Of a stretch of 46,790 bases of DNA, positions 13,187-43,530 are shown one piece after another. The translations under genes and the position numbers were made by a program. Within the stretch, counting starts at the first letter, position 1, and every line of letters starts with the position of its first letter. Source of the DNA: an uncultured Rhodothermales bacterium (GTDB lineage Bacteria > Bacteroidota > Rhodothermia > Rhodothermales > CAYLXM01); the NCBI GenBank assembly GCA_964539455.1, contig CAZIIP010000001.1, forward strand, positions 104,521 through 151,310, given 5' to 3'. Below the pieces are notes generated by a model that did no database searches, was not told the DNA's origin, and saw only the letters and a program-made list of their open reading frames with translations.

Positions 13187-13234
13187 TGGACGGGCGTAAA
13201 CTGATTTTCAACCAATAGCAAGACCGGTTGCCCC

Positions 13235-13768: not shown

Positions 13769-13813
13769 TCCGCTCCCCTGTTTTCAGATCCACCCTGTCG
13801 CGACTGAATAGAG

Positions 13814-15235
13814 ATGAGTAAAACGATCACGATAGACCCGATTACCCGTATCGAGGGACATAGCAAGATCACGATTCAACTGGATGACAAGGGCGTCGTC
13901 CGGGATGCGCGCTTTCACGTGACGCAGTTTCGTGGATTCGAGAAGTTCACGGAAGGCCGCTCTTTCCGCGAAATGCCTTCGCTCACGGCGCGGATTTGTG
14001 GGATCTGCCCGGTCAGTCACCTGATCTCATCATCCAAGGCATGTGACGCCCTACTGGCCGTTGCAATTCCCGAAACGGCTGCCAACCTCCGCAGGATGCT
14101 GAATCTGGCGCAGGTCGCCCAGTCGCACGCGTTGAGTTTCTTCCACCTTTCCGCGCCGGATTTTGTGCTCGGATTCGATTCGGATCCGGCCAAGCGCAAC
14201 ATTCTGGGCATGCTCAAAAAGCATCCCGACCTGGCACGAGACGGGATTATGCTGCGCAAGTTCGGGCAGGAGATTATCCGGATTCTTGGTGGAAAGAAAA
14301 TTCACCCCGCCTGGACCGTACCAGGAGGCGTCAGTTCGCCGCTTTCCGAGGAGGACCATGCTTCCATCAAGGCAGGTATTCCGGAAGCGCTGGAGCAGGC
14401 CCGCAGGACGCTGGACTGGTACAAGAACGTTTTTGGCTCCTTTGAAGACGAGATCCGCACCTTCGCCAACTTCCCGTCCATGTTCATGGGTCAGGTAACC
14501 CCGGAAGGTGAACTCGCACTCTACGACGGCAAGCTTCGGATTGTCGATGCCGTTGGTGAGATCGTGGCCGATCAGCTGGACCCGTCCGACTACCGGGATT
14601 ACATAGGCGAGGCGGTCGAACCCGATTCGTACCTCAAATCTCCGTACTACCGTCCGAAAGGGTATCCGGAAGGCATCTATCGTGTCGGGCCTCTTGCCAG
14701 AATGAACATCGTGTCGCGTGTCGGCACCCCGCTGGCGGATGAGGAATGGGCGGAATTCAGGATGCTGCAGCGCGGTGCGGTACTTAGCTCGTTCCAATAC
14801 CATTATGCTCGCCTTATCGAGTTGCTCCACTGCATCGAAAAAATCGATGAGTTGCTGGATGATCCGAACATTCTGAACACCCATGTCAGGGCATGGGCCG
14901 AGCCCAACCGGCTGGAAGGCGTTGGATGCTCCGAGGCGCCACGCGGTACACTCTTTCACCACTACAAGATTGACCAGAACGGCCTGATCAAGTGGATGAA
15001 CCTGATTATCGCCACCGGACATAACAACCTGGCGATGAATAAAGGGGTGTTGCAGGTGGCGAAGCAGTTCGTCAAAGGGAAGAAGATCAAGGAAGGCATG
15101 CTGAACCGTGTTGAAGCAGTAATCCGGACATTCGATCCCTGCCTGAGTTGTTCGACGCACGCGTACGGACAGATGCCGCTGCATGTGCAACTGATAAGTG
15201 AGGATGGAGAAGTGGTGGACGAGACCTGTTCATAG
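13814..15235 (+). CDS. hoxH: [NiFe]-hydrogenase large subunit HoxH
   Basis: 473 aa. N-terminal Ni-binding motif [10 protein letters not shown] and C-terminal DPCLSCSTH, followed by a 24-aa extension ([24 protein letters not shown]) of the kind removed by a maturation protease. Confidence 0.96.
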
Positions 15236-22379: not shown

Positions 22380-25073
22380 TCAATGCGCCTCGAGCCAGTT
22401 CGGACCGACGTGAATGTCGACTTCCACGGGTACGTTCAGCGCGAGGGCTTCGATCATTCCGGTTCGCACCAACTCCTCCACCTCATCCACTTCAGCCGGC
22501 GGCAGTTCAAGTACTAGTTCATCATGCACCTGCAACAATAGTTGGGCCTCCAGGTCGTTTGCCTCGATTTCCCGGTGAATGCGAATCATTGCAAGCTTGA
22601 TCATGTCGGCCTGGGATCCCTGAATGGGCATGTTCACCGCAATTCGTTCGGCCGCCATTCGTTCCATGCGATTCCTGGCCTTGATGCGCGGCAGATAGCG
22701 CCGTCGCCCGAGCAGGGTTTCCGCAAAGCCATTCTCACGCGCCCTCTCCACCTGTCTGGAAAGGAACGACCATACACCGGGATAGAGCTTGCGGTGGGCA
22801 TCAATCAGGGATTCGGCTTCTTCCCGTGGGATGCGGAGACGTTGCGCCAAACCGAAAGCCGAAATGCCGTACGGGATACCATAGTTGACCTCCTTCGCTT
22901 TGCTGCGCTGCTCCCGCGTGACATCTTCAGGGGCAATATCGAATAAACGTGCGGCCGTTTCGCTGTGGATGTCTCTTCCTCCTTTGAATGCGCCAATCAG
23001 TGCCTCGTCCTCACTCATCGAGGCGAGAATTCGCAGTTCGATTTGCACATAGTCCGCCGACATCATCTTCCAGCCCTGCCGGGGAATAAACACTTTTCGC
23101 AGTTGTCGGCCCTGCTCGCGACGGACCGGGATGTTTTGCAGATTCGGGTTGGAAGACGAGAGTCTTCCGGTAGCCGTAACCGTCTGATTCAGTTGCGTAT
23201 GAATACGGTTGGTTTGCGGATCGACCAATTCACCCAGCGCATCTACATACGTGCTCTTCAACTTCGCTGCGCGACGCCAATCGAGAATCAGCCCGGGCAA
23301 TTCATGCTCGGTGGCCAATTCCTGAAGCACCGACTCACGAGTGGAAGGCTTTCCTGTTCCGGTTTTTGCCCTCACCGGCAAGCCCAGTTCGTCATAGAGC
23401 ACGTCGGCCAGTTGTTGGGGTGAGCCGATATTGAACGCTCGTCCGGCGGCACTGTAAATTTTTTCTTCGAGGTCATGCAGTAAACCCTGTAACTCTCCGC
23501 CGATCTCTTCCAGCACGTCCAGATCGAGCGTCACACCTCGCTTCTCCATGTCCGCCAGCACCTGGATCAACGGCCATTCAATGGTCGTCGCTACTTTTTC
23601 GAGATTGTGTTTGTCCAACTCTCTGATAAGGGGCTCTGCCAGTCTGCCGGCAATCTGCACACGGAGACTTGCATCACGCGCCAGATCCTCCGTGGCTACC
23701 GACCGTACGTCTACCTTCCTTTCGTCCGGTGGGGCATCAATCGACACGGACAGGTAGGCGTCGGCCAACAAGTCGAGGTCATGGCGTTGTTCCGGAGCAA
23801 GCAAATAGTGGGCAACCGTAATATCGATCGGCCGTGGTCGTTCCGTGAGCCCGGCCTCTTCGAGCGCCAGCATATCTTCCTTGGCCCGCCTGCTCACCAT
23901 CTCTTTGTCCCGCACCCAGGGACCCAGAACGGACAGCGCCTTCTTTGTTGATGTTCCATCCGGCAAGGGAAGCGGTACATAGGCGATGTCGCCCTGCATG
24001 CCCCACAAAGCTATTCCTGCAAGTGACCGATGAAGATCGACGGCCGACAACACCGTTTCCACGGCGAAACGCCGGCCGGCGCTCCACTCCCCTGTCCATT
24101 TTTCGAGCGCGTCGGTGGATCGGACAATGCAGTGTGGAGCGTAATCATTCGGGTTATGCGCCTCGCTTTTGGTCTTGAGCGCTTTCTCAATTCCCCGATC
24201 TGACCATACACGCTCCAATAGTGTGCGAAATTCGAGCCGCCGGAACGTCTCCTCAAGCTGCAGCCAATCCGGATCCTCCCGGTGGGCCATATCCCAATCC
24301 AGGATTATATCCACATTGGTAACCAGTGTGACCAGCTCTTTGCTCAGGCGTGCATTGTCGGCCTCTTTCTGCAGTCCTTCCCGTGCGCGCTTTCCCGAAA
24401 CGGTGTCCGACTTTTCAATAAGGGTTTCGACGTCTCCGTACTCGCGCACGAGTTTCAAGGCGGTCTTTTCCCCAATTCCCGTCACACCAGGAACGTTATC
24501 GACCTTGTCACCCATGAGTGCCTGCACATCAATAAACTGCTTTGGTTTCAATTCGAAGCGCTCGACAAATGCTTTATCATCGATTCTTTCGAAGCCCTCA
24601 CCGTTTTTTCTGGACGGTTTGAGCATAGATATATGGTTGTCGAGTAACTGTAAAAAGTCTTTATCTGCCGACACGATCACCGCATCATTTCCACTTTGTG
24701 CAGCCTGTGTAGCCAGTGTGGCAATCACATCATCGGCTTCGAATCCCTGGACCTCCAGAATCGGAATGCCCAGCTCCTCCAGGATTTCCTTAATAAACGG
24801 CAAATTCTCCGTCAGGCCTTCGGGAGGCGGTTCGCGATGTGCCTTATAGTCGTCAAACAAATCGTCCCTGAAAGTAGCCGCCTCCTCCCCCATGACATCG
24901 AACACGCATACGATATGTTCGATGTCGAATTCCTTGATCAGCCGCAGAAGCGTAGTTGTAAATCCGAAAGACGCGGACGTGTTTTGACCAGACGAAGTGA
25001 TTCTCGGTCGGTTGATAAAAGCAAAATGTGCTCGGTACGCGAGAGCGAGCGCGTCGAGAATGTATACGGTCAT
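22380..25073 (-). CDS. polA: DNA polymerase I
   Basis: 5'-3' exonuclease N-terminus (YILDALALAYRAHFAF), a 3'-5' exonuclease region, and family A polymerase motifs (DYVQIELRILA, QVHDELVLE). The start is set at the internal ATG 25073 (MTVYILD); the ORF extends to 25148. Confidence 0.96.
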   Translation of the reverse strand: MTVYILDALALAYRAHFAFINRPRITSSGQNTSASFGFTTTLLRLIKEFDIEHIVCVFDVMGEEAATFRDDLFDDYKAHREPPPEGLTENLPFIKEILEELGIPILEVQGFEADDVIATLATQAAQSGNDAVIVSADKDFLQLLDNHISMLKPSRKNGEGFERIDDKAFVERFELKPKQFIDVQALMGDKVDNVPGVTGIGEKTALKLVREYGDVETLIEKSDTVSGKRAREGLQKEADNARLSKELVTLVTNVDIILDWDMAHREDPDWLQLEETFRRLEFRTLLERVWSDRGIEKALKTKSEAHNPNDYAPHCIVRSTDALEKWTGEWSAGRRFAVETVLSAVDLHRSLAGIALWGMQGDIAYVPLPLPDGTSTKKALSVLGPWVRDKEMVSRRAKEDMLALEEAGLTERPRPIDITVAHYLLAPEQRHDLDLLADAYLSVSIDAPPDERKVDVRSVATEDLARDASLRVQIAGRLAEPLIRELDKHNLEKVATTIEWPLIQVLADMEKRGVTLDLDVLEEIGGELQGLLHDLEEKIYSAAGRAFNIGSPQQLADVLYDELGLPVRAKTGTGKPSTRESVLQELATEHELPGLILDWRRAAKLKSTYVDALGELVDPQTNRIHTQLNQTVTATGRLSSSNPNLQNIPVRREQGRQLRKVFIPRQGWKMMSADYVQIELRILASMSEDEALIGAFKGGRDIHSETAARLFDIAPEDVTREQRSKAKEVNYGIPYGISAFGLAQRLRIPREEAESLIDAHRKLYPGVWSFLSRQVERARENGFAETLLGRRRYLPRIKARNRMERMAAERIAVNMPIQGSQADMIKLAMIRIHREIEANDLEAQLLLQVHDELVLELPPAEVDEVEELVRTGMIEALALNVPVEVDIHVGPNWLEAH

Positions 25074-25166
25074 TTTCAATGCGTCACGATTTGGCGTCAA
25101 GTAGTCTTGCAAACCGCCGCCAAGCGGTATGCAAATCCACTTGTTCAATCCGGAAACGGAAAACCA

Positions 25167-25583
25167 CTAGAGTTTGAGTGCATCTACAATAAATGCACTC
25201 GTGTTGTCGAAACCCGCCTGGAGTGATTTAATCTTAAGCTTCTTCTTCTGATCGGGCGTGAGATGCAACGTCAACCGAACAATTTCCTGACCCGTTGTTT
25301 TCAAATAACCGGTAGACGTCTTCTTGTGGCCCTTTGGCGTCCTCTTACGAGGCGTAGATCTCTTTTTGCCGGCCGGTCGTTTTTTGTCGCCCCCTATTGG
25401 TGGTTTTCCTTCGTTTCGCTCCTTTTGCTCTTTCATCGTCTCCGGAAGTGCTGTTTCACCGTCACCCGTCTCGTTTCCAACTGCATCGCCACCACCCGGG
25501 ACCCGACCGGATACAGGCACCATGGTACGACCGGTTGCGGCTTCCAGTGCTTCCCGTACGCTTGCTCGTCTTCTTTTAGCCAT
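25167..25583 (-). CDS. ParG-like ribbon-helix-helix centromere-binding protein with long basic disordered N-terminal tail
   Basis: 138 aa. The C-terminal VRLTLHLTPDQKKKLKIKSLQAGFDNTSAFIVDALKL has a beta-strand/helix/helix pattern. The N-terminal ~95 aa are Gly/Lys/Pro/Arg-rich. Its start overlaps the parA stop by 8 nt. Confidence 0.65.
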   Translation of the reverse strand: MAKRRRASVREALEAATGRTMVPVSGRVPGGGDAVGNETGDGETALPETMKEQKERNEGKPPIGGDKKRPAGKKRSTPRKRTPKGHKKTSTGYLKTTGQEIVRLTLHLTPDQKKKLKIKSLQAGFDNTSAFIVDALKL

Positions 25584-26382
25584 CTTTCTCTGCCAGCCTG
25601 ATTAGCTCTTCAGCGACCGCCTTGTAGTCGGCCGCACCGTTTCCGTCAGGATCATATTCCAAAATCGTCTCCCCCACCGCGGGTGCCTCTCGAAAACGAA
25701 TCGACTTCCTTACCGGATGCGTCACTCTGTCGCCGTATCGCCCCTCCAGCACGCTCATCACATCGCGTGTAATTAACGTTTGCGATTCGCACATAGTCGG
25801 CAATAGCGCCAGAATACCCGGAGCCAGCCCCCTTGATTGCAAGGCATCTACGGATTCCTGCAACCGACCAAGACCATCCACATCCAGCATGCCCATTGCT
25901 ACCGGCACCACGATCCCACCCTTCCATCCAAACGACTTTAATTCCGTTGCCAGAACGAATGCATTCAGTGCAAGCGCGCCGAGATTTGGCGGACAATCAA
26001 TAATGATCACGTCTCTCTCCAGTGCCAAAAACTCTTTACCCCTGTCACCCAATCGGTATAGCCCGCCACTTAGATCATTTGCAGCATCCCTCTCCGCCTC
26101 AGCCAAACGGGACGTAGAAGCCACAACTGTAATATTCTCCTTCCCTCTTCCTTGCAGCTCCTCTACTACCGATTCGACCCGCGCCTTCTTGTCCATGTAC
26201 AGGGCTGCCGTCCCTCCTTCGCGCACACCGTTCATCCCAAGACTCTTTCCGATATGACCCTGCGGATCGTTGTCCAGTAACAGCACGCGCCGGCCTTTCC
26301 TCGCAAGCGCAGCACCGATTGACACGCACGATGTCGTCTTGCCGACACCCCCTTTCTGATTGGCAAATACAAATACAAACAT
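25576..26382 (-). CDS. parA: ParA-family partition ATPase (small, type Ib-like)
   Basis: Deviant Walker A NQKGGVGKTT right after the internal start at 26382 (MFVFVFANQKGGVGKTT), and Walker B VIIIDCPP. I saw no N-terminal HTH domain. Confidence 0.9.
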   Translation of the reverse strand: MFVFVFANQKGGVGKTTSCVSIGAALARKGRRVLLLDNDPQGHIGKSLGMNGVREGGTAALYMDKKARVESVVEELQGRGKENITVVASTSRLAEAERDAANDLSGGLYRLGDRGKEFLALERDVIIIDCPPNLGALALNAFVLATELKSFGWKGGIVVPVAMGMLDVDGLGRLQESVDALQSRGLAPGILALLPTMCESQTLITRDVMSVLEGRYGDRVTHPVRKSIRFREAPAVGETILEYDPDGNGAADYKAVAEELIRLAEKDG

Positions 26383-26445
26383 GCCTTTTCTTTCGGTACA
26401 ACCTCCTCTATTAGGTGCACAGATACGATCGGTACTACCGCTATT

Positions 26446-26656
26446 TACCACCATACCGATTATACCACCTATACCGCATAATACGCAAATTGACGCTTAT
26501 CTCCTCTACCACTCATAACCTTACTATTCATTATACCACTCTTATACCTATAACTATATCTACCCATGATACACATATAACTACGATGGTTCATACGATT
26601 CATACTATGAATAATAGCTATACATACTGTATGATCGGTAGTAGTACCCATACCAC
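26446..26656. repeat. Centromere-like/operator repeat region upstream of parA
   Basis: TACCAC hexamer occurs 5 times in direct orientation (26446, 26463, 26507, 26533, 26651), along with multiple (T/C)ATACC units and short dyads (TTCATACTATGAA, CATACTGTATG). The plus strand is strongly G-poor: I count 6 G in the 130 nt 26441-26570. Confidence 0.55.
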
Positions 26657-27258
26657 TACGACCATTAGCACCGAATCTCAATATCACGTGATTGGTTCTC
26701 ATTTCCGATTTAACGGAAGCGACCCTTGACATGGGTGGGAGGCTGCCTTTATTGCTTGTCGTTTGTTAGATCGAATCTCATGCATCTCTGTGCCCTGTTG
26801 TTCGTTGACATTGTCGATTCGAAGCCACTCCGTTACTTCTACTTTCACGTGTCTATTTACCAGGCCGATGCAAGACGTCTACAGGCCTGGTATGCACACT
26901 AACACATTCATACATTTCTTTCAGTTTCGCGGTGACGAACCGAGCTTGAATGATCAATGCAATCGGCGTGTATCCGAATGGAAGAACGCAGCCGACAGAA
27001 CAATCAAAAATGTCGAATGCATTCGGACCGATAAAACTGAATGTATGGAAGGTTTCTGTATTTCCTTCTGAGTTCTGAGAGGGAGGTGCATCGTGGCATT
27101 TCCGTGGTATCATCATGCGGGGAGCATATCCTATACGGTGACGACCGTTTGCGTTCAAGGCGCGTACCAGGAGGGGATCAGCATTACAGCCGAAACAGAA
27201 AGGAGTAGCAAAACCGGTTGTTCAACAAGTGGAAAAGAAACGACGACGACGAATGAAG

Positions 27259-27842
27259 GAACAGATATGTGGGGTAGTGTTTGTGTTTTTGTTTAATCAT
27301 GTTTAAAACCGTTTGGCGATTTGGTACACATTAGAATTAATAGATTTGCATTGGGTAAAGGCATAACGGTTTGGGGTGGTGGGCAAGTGTTTGTGGGGTG
27401 AAAGGCATAGAAATATGGGAGCAAAAGCACGGGTATGTGGGGAAAAAGCAAGGAAATGTGGGGTGCTCGCTTTCTGGTGAGATTCTTTAAATGATGAAAG
27501 AAGCATAGAGATGTGGGTGAATGCCATGTCTGGTTGTGTATTAAAAGCATAGAGATATGGGTGACTAAGGAGGTGGCCAACACTTTGGGCATAGAAATAT
27601 GGGTCATGTGTGTGTTTCTTCATGTTATCTTCATAAACATAGGGATGTGGGGCAGGAATGATCAATTTTTGCGGTTGAAAGGTATAGGTGCGTGGGGATT
27701 GTGTGCATAAACGGCTTCTGTCTCCACATTGAAGCATAGATGCGTGGGGAATCGTTGATGTGATGGCATAGAAACGTGGGGAGCGCATTTCATTTCCGAG
27801 TACCGTGCTGCACCACAAACACAAAGGCATAGAGATGTGGGG
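27259..27842 (+). repeat. Iteron array (14 direct 16-mers, consensus GCATAGARATGTGGGG) = plasmid-type origin
   Basis: Copies start at 27259, 27361, 27383, 27405, 27427, 27448, 27503, 27547, 27589, 27637, 27682, 27734, 27766 and 27827, all in the same orientation. Start-to-start spacings are 22, 22, 22, 21, 55, 44, 42, 48, 45, 52, 32 and 61. The array ends 73 bp before the rep start. Confidence 0.85.
27278..27350. other. AT/T-rich stretch inside the iteron region (possible DNA unwinding element)
   Basis: GTGTTTGTGTTTTTGTTTAATCATGTTTAAAACCGTTTGG...ATTAGAATTAATAGATTTGCATT, lying between the first and second iterons. Confidence 0.35.
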
Positions 27843-27914
27843 TGTTACTCCTGTGCCTAACGGCATATATTCGCGGCGAGCCGATTGAAATGATTAACCC
27901 GCAATTATACGGGC

Positions 27915-29207
27915 ATGTCTCTGCTAGTCGAGAACAGGCGCGAGCTTAAGAAGCACGTCGGTGCGGTGCACACGCATGGAAAGCTGACGTTGCTTCAACG
28001 AAAGGTGGCGAATATTCTTATTCTCAATGCTTACAATGAATTACCTACAAAGGATGAGTACCAGATAAGGATCAGGGATCTGGCAGAGATCGCGGGATTC
28101 GACAGCAAGAACATCAAGGTACTCAAGGATTCTTTGCGTGGACTCATGCGCATTGTTATAGAGTGGAATGTACTTGATGAGGCAGGAAAGGAGGAGTGGG
28201 GTGCCAGTCCTATGCTTGCCCAGGCGGTTATAAAGAAGGGCAGTTCACATTTCACCTATTCGATAAGTCCTGTGCTCAGACGGAGGTTATACTCCCCAGA
28301 AATCTATGCCCGAATCAACCTGAGCATCCAGCGACGATTCAGAAGCGGTTATGCGCTGGCACTGTATGAGAACTGTGTTCGTTTTCGCAATGTGGGTACT
28401 ACCGGATGGATAGATCTTGAGACGTGGAGGAAACTGCTCGGCGTAGAAGCCGAGCAATACGCAGCATTCAAGTCGTTTTCGCAGTGGGTGTTAAAGCCGG
28501 CCATCAAGGAGGTCAGCAAGCACTCCGATATCAAGGTTACGGTCGAATACAGGCGTAGGAAGCGCCGTGTGGTGGCCATGCGCTTTAAAATCTTGGACAA
28601 TCCGGCATTCGACGGGATTGATCGGAATGCTCTGCCGATCGCACAGAAGAAGAAGAAAGGCAACGGATCGGCCACGCTGGACATGTTTCAGCAGAGCAAT
28701 CCGCTTGCCCGCCGGCTTGGTACGTTTGGCTTGTCTGCCGTCCAGGTCAAGAGTGTGCTGGACGAGCACGATGAGTCGTACGTAAAGGAGAAACTTGATT
28801 TTGTGGAAAGCGAACTCAAGTCGGGAAGACTCATCAGGAACGTGCCGGGATTTACGCTAAAGGCGCTTGAAAAGGATTACCGGCCTCGGCAGGGCAATGT
28901 CTCGGTTGGAAAGAAAATCAAGGAAGGAGATGGTCGGGCGGCCCTCGACGCCAAGCGAATGAAACGGGCGGAGGAACGGTCACAAAGGCTGGAAGCGTTA
29001 TATGCCGGATTATCCGAGTGGGAGCGATCGAGAGTAGATGAGCGCGTGATCGCCAGGCTGCGCGAGGAAATCGGCGGTGTGGCCTGGAATGCCTATCGCA
29101 GAGCGAGTGAGGCAGGGGAGGGGGAGGATCAGATGCCTGTGATCGTCAGGGGCACTTTGCGCAGTCTCAGACTGGAAGTGGTCGAGCAAATGGAGACGGC
29201 GGTTTAA
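27915..29207 (+). CDS. Replication initiator protein (Rep_3/RepB-like, iteron-binding)
   Basis: 430 aa. The N-terminal two winged-helix-like segments are typical of Rep_3 initiators (LTLLQRKVANILILNAY...IRIRDLAEIAGF...LKDSLRGLM; FKSFSQWVLKPAIKEVSKHSDIKVTVEYRRRKRRVVAMRFKI). It sits immediately downstream of the iterons. Confidence 0.8.
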   Translation: MSLLVENRRELKKHVGAVHTHGKLTLLQRKVANILILNAYNELPTKDEYQIRIRDLAEIAGFDSKNIKVLKDSLRGLMRIVIEWNVLDEAGKEEWGASPMLAQAVIKKGSSHFTYSISPVLRRRLYSPEIYARINLSIQRRFRSGYALALYENCVRFRNVGTTGWIDLETWRKLLGVEAEQYAAFKSFSQWVLKPAIKEVSKHSDIKVTVEYRRRKRRVVAMRFKILDNPAFDGIDRNALPIAQKKKKGNGSATLDMFQQSNPLARRLGTFGLSAVQVKSVLDEHDESYVKEKLDFVESELKSGRLIRNVPGFTLKALEKDYRPRQGNVSVGKKIKEGDGRAALDAKRMKRAEERSQRLEALYAGLSEWERSRVDERVIARLREEIGGVAWNAYRRASEAGEGEDQMPVIVRGTLRSLRLEVVEQMETAV

Positions 29208-29209
29208 GC

Positions 29210-29253
29210 GGCAGGGCAAGTTGCCGGCCCGCACCGGCGGTGCAGTGCCTGCC
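29210..29253. terminator. GC-rich compound hairpin between convergent rep and CBM9-like genes
   Basis: Outer arms GGCAGG (29210-29215) / CCTGCC (29248-29253) and inner hairpin GCCGG-CCCGCA-CCGGC (29223-29238). There is no U-tract. Confidence 0.35.
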
Positions 29254-30011
29254 TATTCAAACACGAGTACGCCGAATTTCCTGAACTCATGATACGACGA
29301 ACCGGTACGTGACCAATCCCATCGCGACACCGATTCGCCGTCGTAATCGTTCCGATAGAAATTGGCACGCCAGCGCGAGCCTGGAGTGGGCGGTACATTC
29401 TGGAGAGGCCGAAGCAATTCGTACGGTATAAATATTTCCATAAACCACCCGTCGATGGCAGCTTCCGATTCTGGTTCGCCGCCACGAATGACCACCTTTT
29501 TTCGGGTTTTTCGAGCGCCTTCGTACTCCCAGGGAATCCACCCCAGGTATGTGTCATCAAAATTCGGGATGATCAGCGGCAGCTCGAAGCCGAGGGGGGA
29601 GATTTCGTACTCGAAATATATCGTGTACCGCTCATCCGGCCAGAGGAAGGCCTCGAACACGTCCTCTTCCCAAAGGTGAAGATAATCGTCCTGGTAGGTG
29701 GCATTGAGAAGGCTATCGGTAGCCTCAACGAGTATATAGAGGCCGGTATCCGAATAAAGAAGCCGAAGGGTCGTTTCGTATGAAACGGTATTGCCGTCGC
29801 GGGGACGCAGGTAAAACGGCTCCGCAAGTTGCCATGGGGACCGGTGGCCACCTCCCATAATCTCAAAATCATCGGTCGGGAGCACGGAAACCACAGGCAA
29901 AGATGTGGCATCCGCGCCTGGCGCGGTCTGTCCCAAGACACGCATTGGTGCGGCAGCAATCAATCCGACTAACAGCGTACAGGTGGTGACGAGAGGCAGT
30001 CGGTTCGACAT
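29253..30011 (-). CDS. Carbohydrate-binding family 9-like secreted protein
   Basis: The start is set at MSNRLPLVTTCTLLVGLIAAAPMRVLGQ (signal peptide, ATG 30011; 30026 is an alternative). CBM9-like segments include EDVFEAFLWPDERYTIYFEYEISPLG, DGWFMEIFIPYELL and WRANFYRNDYDG. Confidence 0.75.
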   Translation of the reverse strand: MSNRLPLVTTCTLLVGLIAAAPMRVLGQTAPGADATSLPVVSVLPTDDFEIMGGGHRSPWQLAEPFYLRPRDGNTVSYETTLRLLYSDTGLYILVEATDSLLNATYQDDYLHLWEEDVFEAFLWPDERYTIYFEYEISPLGFELPLIIPNFDDTYLGWIPWEYEGARKTRKKVVIRGGEPESEAAIDGWFMEIFIPYELLRPLQNVPPTPGSRWRANFYRNDYDGESVSRWDWSRTGSSYHEFRKFGVLVFE

Positions 30012-31955: not shown

Positions 31956-31971
31956 GCATAGATATATGGGG
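31956..31971 (+). repeat. Orphan iteron copy
   Basis: GCATAGATATATGGGG matches the 16-mer iteron consensus at 14-15 positions, in the same orientation as the array. It lies in the ggt/nuclease intergenic region, 4.1 kb from the array. Confidence 0.6.
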
Positions 31972-34615: not shown

Positions 34616-34649
34616 ACACATATATTAAACACATGTGTGAAATATGTGT
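34616..34649 (+). promoter_or_regulatory. Composite operator candidate upstream of imuB
   Basis: ACACAT at 34616 and 34629, and ATGTGT at 34633 and 34644 (11-bp period). The central pair forms the palindrome ACACATGTGT and the outer arms ACACATAT/ATATGTGT are complementary. Positions 34633-34647 are identical to 43505-43519. Confidence 0.6.
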
Positions 34650-34664
34650 ATCGCCTGGTTTAAT

Positions 34665-35795
34665 ATGATTGCCTGTCTTCACATAAGGGATTATCCGGCA
34701 TGGGTCATGCGGTATCGTTATCCGGATGCTGCGCTTGCGGTATTTCACCGGGGGCGTATTCTGGCCAGGAATCGGAAGGCACGGCGGAAGGTGCAAGTGG
34801 GAGAGTTGGTCGAGCGTGCACGTTCGGCGCATCCGGAGGTGCAGTTTCTGGGGCGGGACACGCATGAGGAGGAGATTCGCTGGGAGTATGTACTCGAGAA
34901 GATCAACCGGTATACGCCGCTGGTTGAATCTGCAGTGCCCGGCACGGCCTATTTCCAGCCGCTTGAGGGTCGGGTGCCGGCGCCGCCGGCACGGGAGTTG
35001 TCGGTGCGGGTTGGTGCCGGACCGTCTCGTGCAGTGGCCCGCATTGCGGCCGCCCGTACCCACGACGGGCATTTTCTCGAGATCGCCCCGCGAGGCGTGC
35101 GAACGTTTTTGCGGGCATCGCCCGTTTCGACACTCTGTGACCTGGGATTTCCGGAAGAGATGGTCGAGCGGCTGACCCTTTTCGGGCTGGACAATCTGGA
35201 GCGTATCAGGCAACTGACGCGACGACATCTGACTGCCCAGTTCGGTGCGGATGGTGAGGCGCTGCATGATTTACTGGATTTGCAGAAGACCGACCCGCCC
35301 ATTGCCGTCTACCGCCCGTCTCCAGCGATTTTATGTTTTGTGGATTTCGAGAACGACGTCATCGAGCCGGCGGATATTCTTCCCGCCCTGCAGCATCTGG
35401 TAAGTGAGGCGAGGGACGCGCTCGAGGGACTGGTGACCTCCCGCATCACCCTCGAAACAACGGGCAAAAGCGAAGGGGCAAACCGGATATGCTCGGCAGT
35501 ACTTAAATCCGGCACCTCCGATGCGGGGATCCTCTTTCGCGCGGCGGAACGAAGGCTGAAGAAAAACTGGCCACAGGCGGCGATTTCCCGGATTCGTCTC
35601 ATTCTGGGTGCACTGGGTTATGCCAGGCACCACCAGGGCGCCCTGTTCTTCCAGCGGCCGGACGTCCAGACGGCTGTTCGCCGTGTCCACCGCCGGTATC
35701 CCAATGCTCTGCTGCGTGTCGTGCCGGCAGAGCGGCGGTTGCCGCTCGAGGAGGCCGACGGGTTGTCGTTTGTGCCATACCGCTCCGCCTCATGA
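34665..35795 (+). CDS. imuB: ImuB-like Y-family polymerase homolog (catalytically inactive type)
   Basis: Start MIACLHIRDYPAW (34665; the ORF opens at 34644). Y-family-like fold without the DMDAFF acidic motif seen in dinB. It is followed by dnaE2 in the same orientation. Confidence 0.75.
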   Translation: MIACLHIRDYPAWVMRYRYPDAALAVFHRGRILARNRKARRKVQVGELVERARSAHPEVQFLGRDTHEEEIRWEYVLEKINRYTPLVESAVPGTAYFQPLEGRVPAPPARELSVRVGAGPSRAVARIAAARTHDGHFLEIAPRGVRTFLRASPVSTLCDLGFPEEMVERLTLFGLDNLERIRQLTRRHLTAQFGADGEALHDLLDLQKTDPPIAVYRPSPAILCFVDFENDVIEPADILPALQHLVSEARDALEGLVTSRITLETTGKSEGANRICSAVLKSGTSDAGILFRAAERRLKKNWPQAAISRIRLILGALGYARHHQGALFFQRPDVQTAVRRVHRRYPNALLRVVPAERRLPLEEADGLSFVPYRSAS

Positions 35796-36025
35796 AACGC
35801 ATTGATGAACCGATACGGGTACAGACGAGCGGCAAACGCATCGAAGCCGTCTACTGGCACGGCCGCCGCATTGCGGTGCACGAGCAGACGAATGCGTGGA
35901 TTGTCCGCAGCCGGTGGTGGGGAAGTGAAGAGAAACGGATTTATCGGACGCTGCAGACGGATAAAGGCCATATGGAGGTGTACCAGGTCGGTGATTTGTG
36001 GCGATTGAGCCGCCTGGCGGATTAA
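35792..36025 (+). CDS. Small Trp/Arg-rich protein embedded between imuB and dnaE2
   Basis: 77 aa. Its ATG overlaps the imuB stop (ATGA at 35792-35795) and its stop lies 2 nt before the dnaE2 ATG (36028). Sequence: IEAVYWHGRRIAVHEQTNAWIVRSRWWGSEEKRIYRTLQTDKGHMEVYQV. Confidence 0.6.
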   Translation: MKRIDEPIRVQTSGKRIEAVYWHGRRIAVHEQTNAWIVRSRWWGSEEKRIYRTLQTDKGHMEVYQVGDLWRLSRLAD

Positions 36026-36027
36026 AA

Positions 36028-39000
36028 ATGTTCACTCATCTACACGTACGAAGCTGGTTTTCGTTTTTGCGGGGTGCGTCGCCTCCCGACCAACTGGTCG
36101 AGCAGGCCGCCGCCCTGGGGATGCGTGCGCTGGCGATTACCGATATCAAGGGCATGTACGGCGTGGTGCGCCACCAGCTTGCGTGCAAGGAGCATGGACT
36201 GAAGCCGGTATTCGGCGCCGAGGTGGTGGTCGGGGGTCGGCCCCTCGTACTGCTGGCAAAAACGCGGACAGGGTATGCAAACATTTGCCGCCTTTTAACC
36301 CAGGGATTTCAGCGGACGGAGACGCCCGAGTCGGACGTACGGGTTGAAGAACTGGCTGCGGTGGGCGAGGACGTTATCTGTTTGACGGGAGGTGCGGAAG
36401 GGCTGCTGTGGGATGCGGTGCATCGCAAGGCGTATCCGAAGGCACGAAACTGGGTCGATCATCTGCGGGGAATTTTCGGTCGAAACCTGTACGTTGAGCT
36501 GACGAACCAGCTTCGTCCGGACGACCGGCGGATGGTTACGCGCATGGCGCGCTTTGCGTCCGAGTGCCGTCTGCAGGTGGTGGCGACGGGAGATGTCCGC
36601 TATGCCACACCGGAAGGGTATGCCCTCTATGATCTGATGACGTGTATTCGCACCCACCAGACAATCTTTGAGGGCCATCCGGAGCGTCCGGTAAACGACC
36701 AGGCCTTTTTGCGTCCCGAGGCGGAGCTTCGCCGGTTGATTCCGCATCCTGAAGCGTTTCGCAACGCGGAGCGGATCGAAGCATCCTGCTGCGTGGATCT
36801 CTTGCCCGAGTACATCACCCCACCCGGGGCACGCCTGCCGGCGGGCGTTTTGCCCGAGACACATTTGCGAAAACTGTGCGACGAGGGGTTAAAGACCCGC
36901 TACGCAGCCGGGGAGCGCAAACGGGCACGGGCGCAGATGGAAAGAGAGTTGAAAGTGATCTGCGGACTGGAATTGGAGGAGTTCTTTTTGGTCGTTCGCG
37001 AAGTGGTAGATGAGGCCGCCAGAAGAAACATCCGGTGTGCCGGTCGGGGATCGGCCGCCAACAGCATCGTGGCCTATCTGCTGGGCATCACCCATGTCGA
37101 TCCGATTGCTCACCGGCTTCTCTTCGAGCGCTTTCTGCATCAGGGACGAAAAGGGACGCCGGATATCGACATCGATTTCGATTCGGACCGGCGCCTGGAG
37201 ATCGTCGAGTGGATAGAGGACCGGTTCGGCGTCGAGCAGACGGCCATGTCGGCGACGCTGCAGACCTACCAGTTGCGGTCCGCCCTTCGGGATGTCGCAA
37301 AAGCCCTGGGTTATCCGGAGCAGGTGCTGCGGGCCTTCAGTACAGCTGTGCCGCATCGGCCCGCTACCCGGATCGACGAATACAGGGAGCAGGTCATCAG
37401 CATTCTCGGTGGAGAAACCCCGCTGGCCAGGGCGCTGGTCGAAGGTGTGTGGGCACTCGCCGGATGTCCACGGCACCTCGGACAGCACTCGGGGGGCATG
37501 GTGCTGTCACGCGCACACCTCCATGCGTTTACACCGGTGCAGACCTCGGCGAACGGTGTAAAGATGGTCCAGTTTGACAAACGCGACATCGAGCGGCTGG
37601 GACTGGTCAAACTCGATGTGCTGGGACTTCGTATGCTGGCGGCACTGAGCTTCGCCGAGGAGTTGATCCAGCGCACCCATCCCGAGCCGTTTAATCTCGA
37701 TAAGGTACCGCTGGACGACCGGCCGACGTTCGATATGATCCGGGCAGGGGAGACGATCGGGCTGTTTCAGATCGAATCACAGGGCCAGTTGCATTTGCTG
37801 GCGATGAACCAGCCCGAGACGTTTCAGGATTTGATCGCGGAGATCGCGCTGTTTCGTCCGGGGCCCGTTCAGGGCGGCATGGTTCGTCCCTTCGTGCGGA
37901 GAAGAAAAGGGCAGGAGCGGGTGCAGTTTCAGGATCCGTCGCTGGAACCGATTCTGAAGGACACCTATGGGATTATCCTGTTTCAGGAACAGGTGCTGGA
38001 GGTCGCTCACAAATTCGCCGGCATGAGCCTGCAGGAAGCGGACGATTTCAGGGCGCTGATGTCGAAGTTTCGGGATCCGGGTCAAATGGAATCGATGCGC
38101 ACGGTGTTCGTCAACGGCGCCATGCGGCGCGGTGTATCGGAGAAGGTAGCCCAGGAAGTGTTCGAAAAGGTCTCGAAGTTCGTCGGCTACGGCTTTTGCC
38201 GAAGCCATGCCGCAGCATTCGCCAAAACCGTCTTCCAGTCCGCTTATCTGAAGAAGCACTTTCCTGCCGCCTACATGGCGGCGGTTATGCAGCACATGCC
38301 CGGCATGTATCCGGTCATGACCCTCGAACAGGAGGCAAAACGGCTGGGTGTGCAGGTGTTGTCGCCCGACGTCAACCACAGCGGGATCCTGTATGATCTA
38401 GAGCACCGGGGATATGGCGTGTATGCGATTCGCAAGCCGCTGACGTCGATCAAGGCGGTTTCATTGGAATCGGCGCGGACCATCTTTTTGGAGCGCCTGA
38501 AGGGGCCGTTCAAAGATGTCGAGGACTTTTACCGGCGCTGTGCGGTGGACAAGGATGCCATGGAAAACATCGCCCGGTCGGGTGCGCTGGACGAACTGAC
38601 ACACGGCAGCAGGAAGGCGCTCTGGGAAGTGGGCGTTCTGCACCGAAGACTGGGCACAGCCGGCCGAATAGATCCGCAACAGCACCTTTTCAGCATGCAG
38701 GCACTAGAAGCGGTCGATCTGCCTGCGCTGGCGGAGCTGGGAATCGACGAGCGGCTGAGCTGGGACTATCAGACGCATGGTGCGGCGCGACATCATCCCA
38801 TGACCGTTGTCCGGCGCCAGCTGAATGAACTGGAAGTCCGTCCGGTCAGCGTCTGTTACCAGTACGCACAACCCGCACTGCGTGGCAAGGCGCCCGTGAT
38901 CCAGACGGCCGGCATCGTCATCCTGCGCCAGCGACCGCCGACGGCAAAGGGATTCATGTTCATCACCCTGGAAGACGAGACGGGTTTTATTCAGTGTGTC

Positions 39001-39216
39001 GTCAATCCGCAGGCACAGGATCTTTACGGTCACATGCTCAACAGCGCCGCCCTGATCGTTCAGGGCGAACTGCAGTCCGAGAAAAACTGGCGCGGCATCA
39101 TCCTGCAGCAGGCCTGGCGACTGGATGCCGTTTTTGGCGGATACAAAGGACATGCAAGCTACAGTGGCGGTAGAGACAGGCACGTTGTGTCGACTGCCGA
39201 CGCAGTCAATTCATGA
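36028..39216 (+). CDS. dnaE2: Error-prone DNA polymerase III alpha homolog DnaE2 (ImuC)
   Basis: About 1062 aa from MFTHLHVRSWFSFLRGAS (PHP domain). Pol III alpha core motifs and an OB-fold C-terminus. It lies in a cassette with imuB. Confidence 0.92.
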   Translation: MFTHLHVRSWFSFLRGASPPDQLVEQAAALGMRALAITDIKGMYGVVRHQLACKEHGLKPVFGAEVVVGGRPLVLLAKTRTGYANICRLLTQGFQRTETPESDVRVEELAAVGEDVICLTGGAEGLLWDAVHRKAYPKARNWVDHLRGIFGRNLYVELTNQLRPDDRRMVTRMARFASECRLQVVATGDVRYATPEGYALYDLMTCIRTHQTIFEGHPERPVNDQAFLRPEAELRRLIPHPEAFRNAERIEASCCVDLLPEYITPPGARLPAGVLPETHLRKLCDEGLKTRYAAGERKRARAQMERELKVICGLELEEFFLVVREVVDEAARRNIRCAGRGSAANSIVAYLLGITHVDPIAHRLLFERFLHQGRKGTPDIDIDFDSDRRLEIVEWIEDRFGVEQTAMSATLQTYQLRSALRDVAKALGYPEQVLRAFSTAVPHRPATRIDEYREQVISILGGETPLARALVEGVWALAGCPRHLGQHSGGMVLSRAHLHAFTPVQTSANGVKMVQFDKRDIERLGLVKLDVLGLRMLAALSFAEELIQRTHPEPFNLDKVPLDDRPTFDMIRAGETIGLFQIESQGQLHLLAMNQPETFQDLIAEIALFRPGPVQGGMVRPFVRRRKGQERVQFQDPSLEPILKDTYGIILFQEQVLEVAHKFAGMSLQEADDFRALMSKFRDPGQMESMRTVFVNGAMRRGVSEKVAQEVFEKVSKFVGYGFCRSHAAAFAKTVFQSAYLKKHFPAAYMAAVMQHMPGMYPVMTLEQEAKRLGVQVLSPDVNHSGILYDLEHRGYGVYAIRKPLTSIKAVSLESARTIFLERLKGPFKDVEDFYRRCAVDKDAMENIARSGALDELTHGSRKALWEVGVLHRRLGTAGRIDPQQHLFSMQALEAVDLPALAELGIDERLSWDYQTHGAARHHPMTVVRRQLNELEVRPVSVCYQYAQPALRGKAPVIQTAGIVILRQRPPTAKGFMFITLEDETGFIQCVVNPQAQDLYGHMLNSAALIVQGELQSEKNWRGIILQQAWRLDAVFGGYKGHASYSGGRDRHVVSTADAVNS

Positions 39217-39516
39217 ACCATGAATTGAACCCGCACTACCCGCTTCAACGATCGACTCACCCGCAACCACAAAGATCTTGTCTCCCGGCGCAGGGGTGAA
39301 GCGTCTGTTTCCGGTAAACGTTCCGAAAGCGGGGAAAATGGCGCGCCGCTCTCCCATCACGAAACAGGGGAGACGAAGACGCTGCTGCGCGCCTCCGGAG
39401 AATGAGATGCCGGCGTGGATATGACCGGAGATGACGTAGCCCGGTGGGAGATTGTCTGTATCAACAGCCGAACACTGCCTTTTCTGAAAAGTGCCGCGTT
39501 GCTCACTGTACGTCAT
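39211..39516 (-). pseudogene. C-terminal remnant of a PdeM-like (ligase-associated) metallophosphoesterase
   Basis: SGHIHAGISFSGGAQQRLRLPCFVMGERRAIFPAFGTFTGN matches my recollection of the C-terminal part of PdeM-type phosphoesterases. The N-terminal metal-binding motifs (DxH, GDxxH, GNHD) are absent. The only ATG (39516) overlaps the last codons of the Prim-Pol gene. Confidence 0.4.
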
Positions 39517-41014
39517 TTCCGGGGAAAAGCGGCATCTGGTCCTCCGATGTTGAAGCGCCCTCCCCGTCCGGTTCACTTCCGGATGTAAGGGCGGAGCCCT
39601 GTGCATCCTGAAACAGGCCGGGCTGATCGAAGCGGTATTCGAATCCGTGCCGTTGCAGTACGATCAATGATTTTCGCGGAGTCTCATCAAACCGGCTCTT
39701 GGTCAGCAGTACGCGTTCCCGCGTATGGTCACCAACCTGCTCCAGATGCACCTTAATGTCGACAAATGGATCGAGGGGTGTATCCGGAATGCGCCCTTGT
39801 GAGGTATTGTCGGAAGGGAGATCCCACACGGCAAAGAGGCCGACGCCTCGCAAAATGGCTTTCAGCAGAGGCTGCATGACGTAGTCCGCATCTACCTGCC
39901 GGGAGCCGTCCATCACCTCGCGTCCGGCGAAAGCATTCAGCCGGTCGATAACAATCAGGCGTGCCTTTACGGTAGTGCAGCGATCCACTGCGGCCGCGAT
40001 CAGCTTTGGCCAGGACACATCCAGTGACTCCTGATAGTGAAGCACGTGAAGCCTGTTGAGAAACAGATGGTTGTAGCCGCGGGCCAGAATGGCCCTGCCC
40101 AGGGACGCCGGCGATTCCGACGTGAGAAGCACGACACTTCCCTGAACGGATCTGCGCGTCAGGAATTCGGAGCCCTCCAGCACTGAGCGGATGAGATGAA
40201 GCGCGAAGGTGGTTCTCCCGCTGCCTTTTTCCGTTCCGTGCAGCAAGGTAATTGCCTGGGTAGCCGCCCAGGGTTCATTGATCCATATGCTCGAATTGTC
40301 CGCCGCCACGTCGAATCCCGTGCGGAACGGCAAATCCGGCATTTCCTCGCCCATTTCTGTCTGGGCTTTGTTCTCCGTGCGGGTACGAACGCGCAAATTG
40401 CATCTTCGGAGAATCCATCCGGGGACGGGCGCAACGGAGGTCTGCCGGATGGTCGCACCTGGGTCCCACGAGCTCTCTTCCCAGCGATCCCCGTACAGGT
40501 GAACGGACGGTGGTGCGAAAACCACTTCTCCTTCTCCCAGAAGCGTAATGCCGGGTGCGATAGGTGTCGAACCGGCCGGCATTGCTGATGGATCGGCCGA
40601 AAACAGGTGGACAAGCCGGTCGGAGGACGCCAGGATGGTTGGCGTCTTCGGAAGCATCCCGTGCATGATCTCGAGTTCGTTGGCGCTCGCCAAACCGTCT
40701 CGTCCGTCTATCAGCAGCGCGACCAGGCGTGCATCGGCGCCCAGCGCCATACCAATGCGTGCATGGGGGTGGGTTTGCCACCAGCGCTCTATGTGATCGC
40801 GGTTGGAGGTGGCCCTGTCGATTCCAAAGTATTGACAGCGTGTGGAGGGCTGCCGGCAGTCGGCATTCGAGAGTTCACAAATGCATTCTCCGGCACGTCT
40901 CCTGCCTCTGCGGACGGACGGCAGCGGCAGGACAGGATATCCGAGTTCCGCAATTTCCAGTGCCGCCCGTCTCAGTCGCTCTCCAACTCTGTCGGTTCGT
41001 CCGTTTTCAGCCAT
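39503..41014 (-). CDS. Bifunctional Prim-Pol (archaeo-eukaryotic primase-like) / RecA-like AAA_25 ATPase fusion
   Basis: 503 aa. The N-terminal Prim-Pol-like region has ELGYPVLPLP, ERWW, IGMALG, LLIDGRDG, LVHLF and VVFAPPSVH. The C-terminal P-loop domain has LLHGTEKGSGRTTFALHLI and Walker B RLIVIDRLNAF. Confidence 0.75.
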   Translation of the reverse strand: MAENGRTDRVGERLRRAALEIAELGYPVLPLPSVRRGRRRAGECICELSNADCRQPSTRCQYFGIDRATSNRDHIERWWQTHPHARIGMALGADARLVALLIDGRDGLASANELEIMHGMLPKTPTILASSDRLVHLFSADPSAMPAGSTPIAPGITLLGEGEVVFAPPSVHLYGDRWEESSWDPGATIRQTSVAPVPGWILRRCNLRVRTRTENKAQTEMGEEMPDLPFRTGFDVAADNSSIWINEPWAATQAITLLHGTEKGSGRTTFALHLIRSVLEGSEFLTRRSVQGSVVLLTSESPASLGRAILARGYNHLFLNRLHVLHYQESLDVSWPKLIAAAVDRCTTVKARLIVIDRLNAFAGREVMDGSRQVDADYVMQPLLKAILRGVGLFAVWDLPSDNTSQGRIPDTPLDPFVDIKVHLEQVGDHTRERVLLTKSRFDETPRKSLIVLQRHGFEYRFDQPGLFQDAQGSALTSGSEPDGEGASTSEDQMPLFPGNDVQ

Positions 41015-41221
41015 GCCGCTCGTCTCGTTTTCGTTTCCGGCTCATCCGGCAACGTTTTCGAGGTGCATTTGCATGCGCATGATCCATTGCTCGGGTGACT
41101 TCAAACTTAAGCCTTCCCGTAGCCTTTCCGCCAGCAATGGGAAACAAAAAGGTGCCGGCTGCAGCCGTTCCACAAGCAAATCGTCTGCTCCCGGTATGCA
41201 AAACCATTCACGCTGACGCGC

Positions 41222-41593: not shown

Positions 41594-41638
41594 CGTTCCT
41601 CGTTGAGATATTGGCGGTTGGGAGAGGGAAGGTCGGGG

Positions 41639-41666
41639 AAAATACAAAAAGCGCCCGAGAGGACGC
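41639..41666 (-). terminator. Rho-independent terminator after dnaA
   Basis: On the minus strand, GCGTCC-TCTC-GGGCGC (one G-U pair) is followed by TTTTTGTATTTT. It begins 35 nt after the dnaA stop. Confidence 0.6.
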
Positions 41667-41700
41667 CTTTGCAACCTGCAGCATCAAACCTGTGGACCGC

Positions 41701-43176: not shown

Positions 43177-43234
43177 TATCTATTTCGGCGTTCAGATTAG
43201 AAACTCTGGTCGATTCGAGGCAACCTAAATCTGA

Positions 43235-43519: not shown

Positions 43520-43530
43520 AATTTGACGAC

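Follow-up and report, generated by a model that had tools for sequence, protein, structure and literature searches.

The window analysed here, a 46,790-nucleotide (nt) stretch of contig CAZIIP010000001.1 from an uncultured microbial-mat bacterium, carries an array of direct repeats (iterons) at positions 27259–27842 (all coordinates refer to the whole window). The array occupies the plus strand between rep (27915–29207, plus strand), predicted to encode a 430-amino acid (aa) initiator of the Rep3 family, and a divergently oriented gene for a partition ATPase, parA (25576–26454, minus strand). It ends 73 bp before the rep start codon and begins approximately 800 bp from parA. Searching the whole window for the consensus GCATAGARATGTGGGG with up to 3 mismatches yielded 14 matches against 0.46 expected, a number reached in none of 100 dinucleotide-preserving shuffles; 10 of these matches, all on the plus strand, fall within the array, and unbiased repeat detection recovered the same repeat families. 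The possibility, raised in the initial annotation, that the repeats are no commoner than chance would have them is thereby answered in the negative. An iterated 22-nt position weight matrix (PWM) identified 13 strong plus-strand copies of (A)AARGCATAGRNATRTGGGG in the array, scoring 20.9 to 30.9 bits. Because the 5′ AAAG/AAAA flank is conserved as well, the repeat unit, previously described as 16 bp long, is longer than that and measures approximately 20 bp.

The copies are arranged in two blocks preceded by a single outlier. Iteron 1 (27259–27274, GAACAGATATGTGGGG, 24.8 bits) stands alone, 102 bp before a tandem block with a 22-bp period, which comprises iteron 2 (27361–27376, GCATAACGGTTTGGGG, 20.9 bits), the degenerate iteron 3 (27383–27398, GCAAGTGTTTGTGGGG) and iterons 4 to 6 (27405–27420, 27427–27442 and 27448–27463, with 25.4, 25.5 and 25.8 bits, respectively). 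Eight dispersed copies follow, namely iterons 7 and 8 (27503–27518 and 27547–27562; 28.1 and 29.3 bits), iterons 9 to 11 (27589–27604, 27637–27652 and 27682–27697; 21.6, 24.6 and 21.4 bits), iterons 12 and 13 (27734–27749 and 27766–27781; 24.2 and 23.9 bits) and iteron 14 (27827–27842), a perfect copy of the consensus (30.9 bits) that starts 88 bp before the rep ATG and is the predicted autoregulatory site. Iteron 3 has 6 mismatches and scores below 8 bits; it retains GCA...TGTGGGG and is counted as the 14th copy only because it lies exactly in the 22-bp register, so that the 14 same-strand iterons reported previously are better described as 13 strong copies and a degenerate one than as 14 equal ones. 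The start-to-start spacings of the 14 copies are 102, 22, 22, 22, 21, 55, 44, 42, 48, 45, 52, 32 and 61 bp, and all of those quoted earlier were correct when recomputed from the starts. The contrast behind the proposed subdivision into degenerate and near-perfect copies is modest, with means of 3.6 mismatches in the tandem copies versus 2.0 in the looser ones (hand count).

The initial annotation also suggested that helical phasing would bring most of the bound initiator to one face of the DNA. Genuine phasing is confined to the five-copy tandem block, where it follows by construction from the 22-bp period. In a Rayleigh test of the eight looser copies over periods of 10 to 11.5 bp, the best R was 0.71 (Monte Carlo P = 0.15), and 5 of their 8 spacings lie within 2 bp of a multiple of 11, as expected by chance with P = 0.27. 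As neither test is significant, placement of the dispersed copies on one face is unsupported. The array itself is genuine and no assembly artefact, being reproduced in independent assemblies of three microbial-mat metagenome runs (X1 to X3): a 26.7-kb contig from run X1 covers the whole of it and differs by a single base, which falls at a variable position of an iteron, and a contig from a second run is identical over 26916–27667.

The rep product matches Pfam Rep3_N (6.9e-20) and Rep3_C (8.6e-17), both above the gathering score, whereas its NCBIfam matches to RepM and RepE are well below the cut-offs. By sequence only, the relationship to RepE is marginal (E = 0.04). In an AlphaFold2 model (mean pLDDT 77), WH1 spans residues 18–155 and WH2 residues 168–228, followed by an extra helical C-terminal region at 251–429; the best Foldseek matches of the model are RepE, in its dimer and monomer forms, pi of R6K, and domains 2–3 of RctB. 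As modelled, this Rep3 initiator (27915–29207) adopts a WH1-WH2 fold like that of RepE. The C-terminal region (28665–29207) is a conserved helical extension of approximately 180–200 aa, which RepE, pi and the pPS10 RepA do not have; its invariant residues include L268, G272, E298, G304, A317 and D321. All Foldseek matches at E ≤ 0.001 are initiators of the RepE, pi or RctB types, which are without such an extension, and the region is a candidate oligomerisation or helicase-contact domain.

Between iteron 1 and the tandem block lies an A+T-rich segment, 27278–27359, that we predict to be the DNA unwinding element (DUE) from its composition, duplex stability and conserved position. The A+T-rich stretch noted earlier at 27278–27350 is real: the A+T content of 27260–27359 is 68–72%, compared to approximately 44% for the window, and nearest-neighbour calculations rank 27280–27359 as the second least stable 80-bp duplex in the 46.8 kb (top 0.23%, approximately 3.8 standard deviations from the mean). 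The segment contains plus-strand GTTTR repeats (27279–27316), with GTTT at 27279 and 27285 followed by three units at a distance of exactly 10 bp from one another (GTTTAA at 27291, GTTTAA at 27301 and GTTTGG at 27311), the final one lying 50 bp before the first tandem iteron. At approximately 27 kb, the GC content falls to 46–47% and the GC skew switches from −0.27 to +0.32.

Conservation of the layout in the Rep clade

To this Rep clade we assigned 517 database proteins (E ≤ 0.001), 417 loci among species-representative genomes and 695 plasmids of PLSDB, all of the latter with less than 60% Rep identity. Hosts include Rhodothermales, Rubricoccaceae, Competibacteraceae, Rhodobacterales, Burkholderia and others, and the replicons are typically 25–550 kb in size and carry metabolic genes. 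Complete plasmids of 425–472 kb are included, among them p1 of Gemmobacter fulvus (425 kb), which has the same parB-parA/rep arrangement. The nearest relatives of the window Rep (68–81% identity) are found on contigs of 1.1–2 kb, and the comparison with them excludes the tandem block, the DUE and a remote iteron described below. Four loci (L021, L037, L044 and L048) with a run of N where the tandem iterons are expected were left out of the survey. A megablast search of 25000–29300 against PLSDB returned nothing, an exact-protein look-up of the window Rep and its Rubricoccus homolog P0043 returned no contig, and a protein-pattern scan of a metagenome collection returned no relative. A DNA scan for an iteron pair at 32-bp spacing had a sole match, L167, which was rejected as a false positive caused by a simple GGCATAGGG repeat.

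Two close relatives, L003 and L004 (68–69% Rep identity), share the GCATAG-N5-TGGGG iteron with the window. Iterons 9 to 11 are kept in both, as are the rep-proximal spacings of 52, 32 and 61 bp that lead to iterons 12, 13 and 14, whereas the spacers between the iterons have diverged. This pattern amounts to a phylogenetic footprint of the iterons and indicates that their spacing is constrained. Relatives at 40–49% identity have other iterons, such as AGGTACCRGTYTACRGGGC, ACGTGGACATCTATGGGG and AATGTCCCCGTTTATGGGA, set in the same AAAGG...GGG frame and in the same layout. Across 52 loci, the similarity of iteron PWMs correlates with WH1-WH2 identity (Spearman 0.49, Mantel P approximately 0.0005), a correlation to which shared ancestry contributes. 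In the relatives, the array goes with rep and not with par.

The order of elements recurs as well. A tandem block (at least 3 iterons at 20–24 bp) is present in 41 of 74 loci, other loci having spacings of 31–33 bp, and the arrays have a median of 6.5 copies. By the automatic count used for the survey, the window has 11 copies (13–14 with the full PWM) and ranks in the top five for array length. Between the tandem block and the 1–4 rep-proximal copies, 47 of 59 arrays have a gap of at least 80 bp (median 132), and the distance from the last iteron to rep is 60–150 bp in 45 of 59 loci (median position −105; window −88). The subclade of the window is unusual only in that its gap is filled by extra copies at 42–61 bp. 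The subdivision into origin iterons and copy-control or autoregulatory iterons proposed in the initial annotation agrees with a family-wide split, the functions of the two sets being a matter of interpretation.

Of the two flanks of the tandem block, the one distal to rep has the higher A+T content in 35 of 41 loci (64% versus 53%, against a background of 40%) and bears a repeat, YGTTTA(A/G)RR, in 3–6 strand-specific copies. GTTTA occurs there at 28.5 per kb compared to 1.0 per kb elsewhere (approximately 29-fold), with no enrichment of its reverse complement; 87 of 107 repeat spacings measure 9–11 bp, with a mode of 10, and the last repeat precedes the first tandem iteron by 43–56 bp. It is this comparison that decides in favour of 27278–27359, rather than the parA leader, as the DUE, and it supports, computationally, the function previously suggested for the A+T-rich stretch. 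A lone distal iteron is found 103–109 bp before the block also in L007, L008, L009, L011, L012 and L013, so that the predicted DUE is bracketed by iterons in the subclade of the window. The GTTTA repeats keep their sequence across three bacterial lineages, whereas the iterons change. In most relatives GTTTA also forms the centre of the iteron; this is not the case in the window, yet its DUE keeps GTTTA. Perfect DnaA boxes, TTATCCACA, are concentrated in the 900 bp upstream of rep (0.37 per kb versus 0.008 per kb elsewhere, approximately 43-fold); 19 of 81 loci have them, for the most part between −167 and −333 or on the far side of the DUE from rep. At the level of sequence, then, the window matches point for point a layout common to approximately 80 related replicons of Rhodothermales, Competibacteraceae and Rhodobacterales.

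Several smaller elements accompany the iterons of the window. At the distal edge of the origin, a CGACGACGACGA trinucleotide tract (27241–27252, plus strand) corresponds to the (CGA)n/(CGT)n tracts that 22 of 39 related origins have ahead of their GTTTA repeats. Next to it, distal to the DUE, is a weak DnaA-box-like 9-mer of low confidence (27228–27236, minus strand; AGTGGAAAA on the plus strand, 7 of 9 positions matching TGTGGATAA); several relatives have perfect DnaA boxes at the equivalent position. Among the dispersed iterons, a DnaA-box candidate with 1 mismatch, TTATGCACA (27702–27710, minus strand), is located at −213 and conserved in L004, and faces a TCCACA hexamer, the DnaA-box core (27723–27728, plus strand), that is invariant in the alignment of the window with L003 and L004. 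The same alignment contains an invariant non-iteron box, TCTTCATGTTATCTTCAT (27617–27634, plus strand), with TCTTCAT twice, 11 bp apart, although the neighbouring spacers have diverged. Downstream of the last iteron, the block CTGTGCCTAACGGCATAT (27851–27868, plus strand) is kept in L003 and L004 and overlaps a −10/−7-like element, TATATTCG (27866–27873, plus strand), 22 bp downstream of that iteron; this region is the putative rep promoter. A sigma-70 promoter scan of the array was uninformative (1 match versus 4.2 expected).

Some loci of the survey depart from this pattern in their spacing. In some Competibacteraceae members (L018, L024, L026, L028, L030, L041 and others), the tandem iterons are spaced at 31–33 bp, that is, three helical turns, instead of 22 bp. 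L022 and L027 have a second block at 36–39 bp, and L029 a separate 14-bp tandem repeat approximately 900 bp upstream of rep.

Probable replication origin and alternative readings

In its design, the array is a well-formed, classic iteron origin of the textbook kind, and the sequence comparisons make it very probable that a large Rep3-type replicon has its vegetative (theta-type) origin of replication and its control region here. The size assumed in the initial annotation, that of a small replicon, is wrong, since the cluster of the Rep protein lists a 151-kb contig. A mechanism can be drawn by analogy with RK2, F, P1 and pPS10. Rep monomers would bind the approximately 20-bp iterons through WH1 and WH2, as suggested by the fold, the adjacency of rep and array, the footprint and the co-variation of Rep and iterons. 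Cooperative occupation of the tandem copies (27361–27463) together with the lone copy at 27259 would then distort and melt the DUE, a step to which the layout, the stability profile and the conservation in the family point. Rep would most likely hold the plus-strand GTTTR repeats, one helical turn apart, as single-stranded DNA (ssDNA) in a "loop-back" manner, by comparison with TrfA of RK2 and RepE of F, which contact the repeated DUE elements on one particular strand and require every repeat (PMC4081077, PMC10602881); RepE accommodates iteron double-stranded DNA and T-rich DUE ssDNA together (PMC4081077, PMC10602881). DnaA, supplied either by the host or by the dnaA gene that the same contig carries at a distance of 14 kb, may assist through the degenerate boxes at approximately 27702–27728 and possibly 27228, after which the helicase would be loaded. 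The eight dispersed copies (27503–27842) would not fire the origin but rather titrate Rep, handcuff sister origins and keep the copy number low, and the last of them, upstream of the −10/−7-like element, would let Rep repress its own promoter; these roles are modelled on RK2, incC of F, incA of P1 and ori2-inc of Vibrio cholerae (PMC6090056). Segregation of the replicon would fall to parA and a 138-aa open reading frame (ORF) downstream of it.

Several observations weigh against this interpretation. No significant helical phasing was detected among the dispersed copies (P of approximately 0.15–0.27), and the Mantel correlation between iterons and Rep is due in part to shared ancestry. Within the locus, duplex stability is lowest in the parA leader (26520–26645) rather than in the proposed DUE. 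The skew switch is largely local, reflecting G-rich iterons and a C-rich par leader, and is weak outside 24–29 kb. The window contains no perfect DnaA box, just candidates with 1 or 2 mismatches, and between its last iterons and rep we saw no inverted (half-)iteron operator at the rep promoter. Such an operator is not universal among iteron plasmids, P1 being autoregulated via direct iterons. In L003 (approximately 205–225) and L004 (approximately 385–405), an inverted full iteron, CCCCACAnnnCTATGCC, is located between the penultimate and last direct iterons and is a possible dimer operator; the window sequence at this place is unrelated.

Four groups of known replicons resemble the window in different respects. 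In RK2, copy control involves additional iterons located beyond the minimal origin, and there are DnaA boxes as well. Like the window, oriV of RK2/RP4 has five core iterons at 22-bp spacing beside an A+T-rich DUE, which in RK2 consists of four repeated 13-mers bound on one strand by TrfA (PMC4081077, PMC10602881), compared to the 10–11-nt GTTTA(A/G) unit of the window. RK2 further differs in its number of iterons (nine versus 13–14), in the third DNA-binding domain of TrfA and in the large distance between the gene for TrfA and oriV; in the window, rep directly adjoins the array and is preceded by both sets of iterons. Mini-F ori2/RepE and P1 oriR/RepA share with the window a WH1-WH2 initiator, RepE being the best structural match, a division of the iterons into origin and copy-control sets (incC in F, incA in P1), and the combination of a low-copy replicon with a par system. 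RepE, too, binds repeated 8-mers on the T-rich strand of the DUE (PMC10602881). Unlike in the window, the control iterons of F and P1 are located downstream of rep, and F is autoregulated through an inverted-repeat operator bound by Rep dimers, of which none is seen here; compared to RepE, the window Rep has an additional C-terminal region of approximately 200 aa.

The RepB-type (Rep_3) replicons of Rhodobacterales, Burkholderia and Pseudomonas megaplasmids belong to the same Rep clade (35–43% identity) and have the same divergent parAB-rep module on replicons of 25–470 kb, with the surveyed Rhodobacterales loci displaying the same layout of iterons, DUE and DnaA boxes. The window differs from them in host phylum (Rhodothermota/Bacteroidota-like), in iteron sequence, in having approximately twice as many iterons, and in its filled gap. 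The fourth counterpart, ori2/RctB of V. cholerae chromosome 2, is likewise a plasmid-derived iteron origin on a large replicon with housekeeping-type genes, and domains 2–3 of RctB share the fold of the window Rep. In V. cholerae, the minimal origin lies beside a control region with extra initiator sites, and a remote initiator site is found elsewhere (PMC6090056). However, RctB has four domains, 12-mer and 39-mer sites, and Dam/SeqA control, none of which is seen in the window. Our literature search found no publication on origins of this Rep clade in Rhodothermota or on a GTTTA-repeat DUE.

Of the other explanations, the one that survives best, improbable as we consider it, is that the contig could be a chromosome into which a plasmid module, now a silent relic, has been integrated, with the molecule replicating from a DnaA-dependent oriC, for instance near dnaA at approximately 43.2–43.5 kb. 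Such a history would fit the chromosome-type genes of the flanks (equivalogs of gyrA, parC, polA, uvrB and dnaA), the lack of conjugation or typical plasmid accessory genes among the 46.8 kb, and the degenerate DnaA boxes in the dnaA-dinB spacer. It does not fit the state of the module, in which rep, parA and all origin elements are intact and the iterons are, within the subclade, under purifying selection, nor the position of the skew minimum, which is at the array and not at dnaA. Furthermore, the Rep clade typically drives large replicons with metabolic genes in the size range given above, chromosomal polA loci of Rhodothermales have no synteny to the window, and the dnaA spacer contains neither a perfect box nor an oriC-type cluster of boxes.

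Whether the array, or its dispersed half, might instead be a partition centromere bound by a ParB-type adaptor from the parA operon is a question posed by its location between parA and rep. Type Ib par loci have direct-repeat arrays upstream of parA, and the 138-aa ORF, which is of no recognisable family, would leave room for this assignment. The array, however, abuts rep and stands well apart from parA, and relatives have such arrays beside rep with no par gene within 10 kb, as in L005. Moreover, the iteron sequence co-varies with Rep, and the A+T-rich, repeat-bearing segment directly upstream of parA (26455–26730) is the better candidate, making a centromere at the array very unlikely. Readings of the repeats as low-complexity sequence or a product of chance, as a CRISPR-like array (clustered regularly interspaced short palindromic repeats) or as a coding repeat can practically be dismissed, because, for all that a 187-aa minus-strand ORF (27303–27866) can be drawn over the array and the dispersed spacings of 42–61 bp recall CRISPR, no shuffle reached the observed count, the ORF has no Pfam match and is a mechanical product of G-rich direct repeats, the units are approximately 20 bp long with a degenerate centre and irregular spacings of 21–102 bp, no cas gene was found among the window ORFs scanned, and Rfam gave no match apart from one sub-threshold chance hit.

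If the array is the origin that the comparison indicates, the classic iteron design extends to large replicons of Rhodothermota-like bacteria. The shared layout can be reduced to a reusable signature, consisting, in this order, of a (CGN)n tract, 3–6 strand-specific GTTTA(A/G) repeats at 10–11 bp, a spacer of approximately 45–55 bp, the tandem block, a gap that often contains DnaA boxes, and the rep-proximal iterons. It may lend itself to the annotation of origins on megaplasmids and chromids of Rhodobacterales, Competibacteraceae and Rhodothermales, and the surveyed set of approximately 80 replicons is a natural test set for the loop-back model of Rep binding to ssDNA.

Outlying iterons and the par module

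Away from the array, an isolated consensus iteron, aaaaGCATAGATATATGGGGta (31956–31971, plus strand), has the best PWM score of the window (31.2 bits). It is located 4.1 kb from the array within a 165-bp gap upstream of ggt. Among 73 relatives surveyed, only L060 and L083 have remote plus-strand iterons less than 6 kb from rep. The remote copy could be a partner for titration or handcuffing, a Rep-controlled promoter, or a relic. Within rep itself, GCATAGATTTCTGGGG (28294–28309, minus strand) resembles an inverted iteron and recurs at the same offset in L003 and L004. Its conservation is explained by coding, because it overlaps the codons for the invariant motif S-P-E-I-Y-A (window and L003; the frame of L004 is unconfirmed); since this constraint suffices, we did not retain it as a Rep site, a role that it may nevertheless have.

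The parA product matches Pfam AAA_31/CbiA and falls below the cut-off of NCBIfam ParA_partition. The 138-aa ORF (25167–25583, minus strand), a candidate small ParB-type adaptor by virtue of its position, has no match in Pfam or NCBIfam, and a full-length polA follows the two genes. Directly upstream of parA, 26455–26730 comprises the least stable DNA of the window, is strongly G-poor on the plus strand and is enriched in GTGGTA/TACCAC (5 of the 14 occurrences in the window), TATACC (4 copies) and ATCGGTA (3 copies). Judged by these sequence features, the segment is likely to be a par operator or centromere. A search of the parA leader (26410–26760) for a crisp centromere array revealed only modest word enrichment, and an 87-aa ORF that can be drawn across the leader has no family match. 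A strain variant from run X1 has a 13-bp insertion, GCATCTCTGGGCA, at 26781, nearly duplicating the adjacent sequence. As this insertion would shift the frame of a 102-aa ORF at 26763–27071, that ORF is arguably non-coding.

Gene content and nature of the replicon

The PolA of the source organism is just 45–51% identical to those of Rhodothermales metagenome-assembled genomes (MAGs). Around the origin, genes for replication and repair are unusually dense, at 2176–25148 and 34644–44586, and include uvrB, a parC-type gene, nth-like and xth-like genes, gyrA and polA, together with an ImuB-like and DnaE2-like pair, a PrimPol-helicase (PrimPol+AAA_25), a full-length dnaA and dinB. GyrA, the ParC-type protein, UvrB and PolA pass their equivalog cut-offs, DnaA only barely (353 versus 343.9). 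The clustering of these genes, the DnaE2/ImuB cassette and the marginal DnaA score suggest that they are accessory copies. Synteny of the core-type genes of the window with Rhodothermales polA loci was sought and not found, and a genome scan with the window DnaA gave only unrelated matches (24–34% identity), the query peptides being idiosyncratic and thus uninformative as to whether this DnaA is the canonical one.

A plasmid-type replication and partition system, one of the hallmarks of a chromid, is present in the form of Rep3, iterons and parA. The gene content raises the question of whether the replicon is an essential chromid or an ultraviolet/repair megaplasmid of a microbial-mat organism. 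A bolder proposal, which we regard as unlikely, is that the array serves an essential chromid as its origin, in a deep-branching lineage of Rhodothermota/Bacteroidota whose working copies of gyrA, parC, polA, uvrB and even dnaA would reside on that chromid, and, linked to this, that the phylum-spanning 10–11-nt GTTTA(A/G) repeat of the DUE would be a clade-specific code read by Rep on the single strand, independent of iteron specificity. Were it true, the replicon would be an iteron-type secondary chromosome outside Proteobacteria, with the chromosomal initiator encoded on a Rep-driven molecule.

The spacer between dnaA and dinB (43177–43530) contains degenerate DnaA boxes, among them TTGTTCACA at 43241, TTATCCACG at 43273 and CTATCCACA at 43396, as well as two A+T-rich patches, and shows no GC-skew switch; it looks more like a site of dnaA autoregulation than an oriC. 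A 70-kb contig from a Rubricoccaceae MAG with a Rep of the same clade (L052) has at 58–7242, less than 6 kb from rep, genes for a PrimPol, a ParA and a polymerase of the DnaE2 type that is 62% identical to that of the window, so that the association of this origin type with an error-prone polymerase recurs. The window also carries an operon for an NAD(P)-linked bidirectional [NiFe] hydrogenase (10244–15235), with Nuo51/HoxF-like, HoxU-like and NiFeSe large-subunit proteins, and, in addition to ggt, genes for a sulfatase, a purple acid phosphatase and an enolase-superfamily enzyme.

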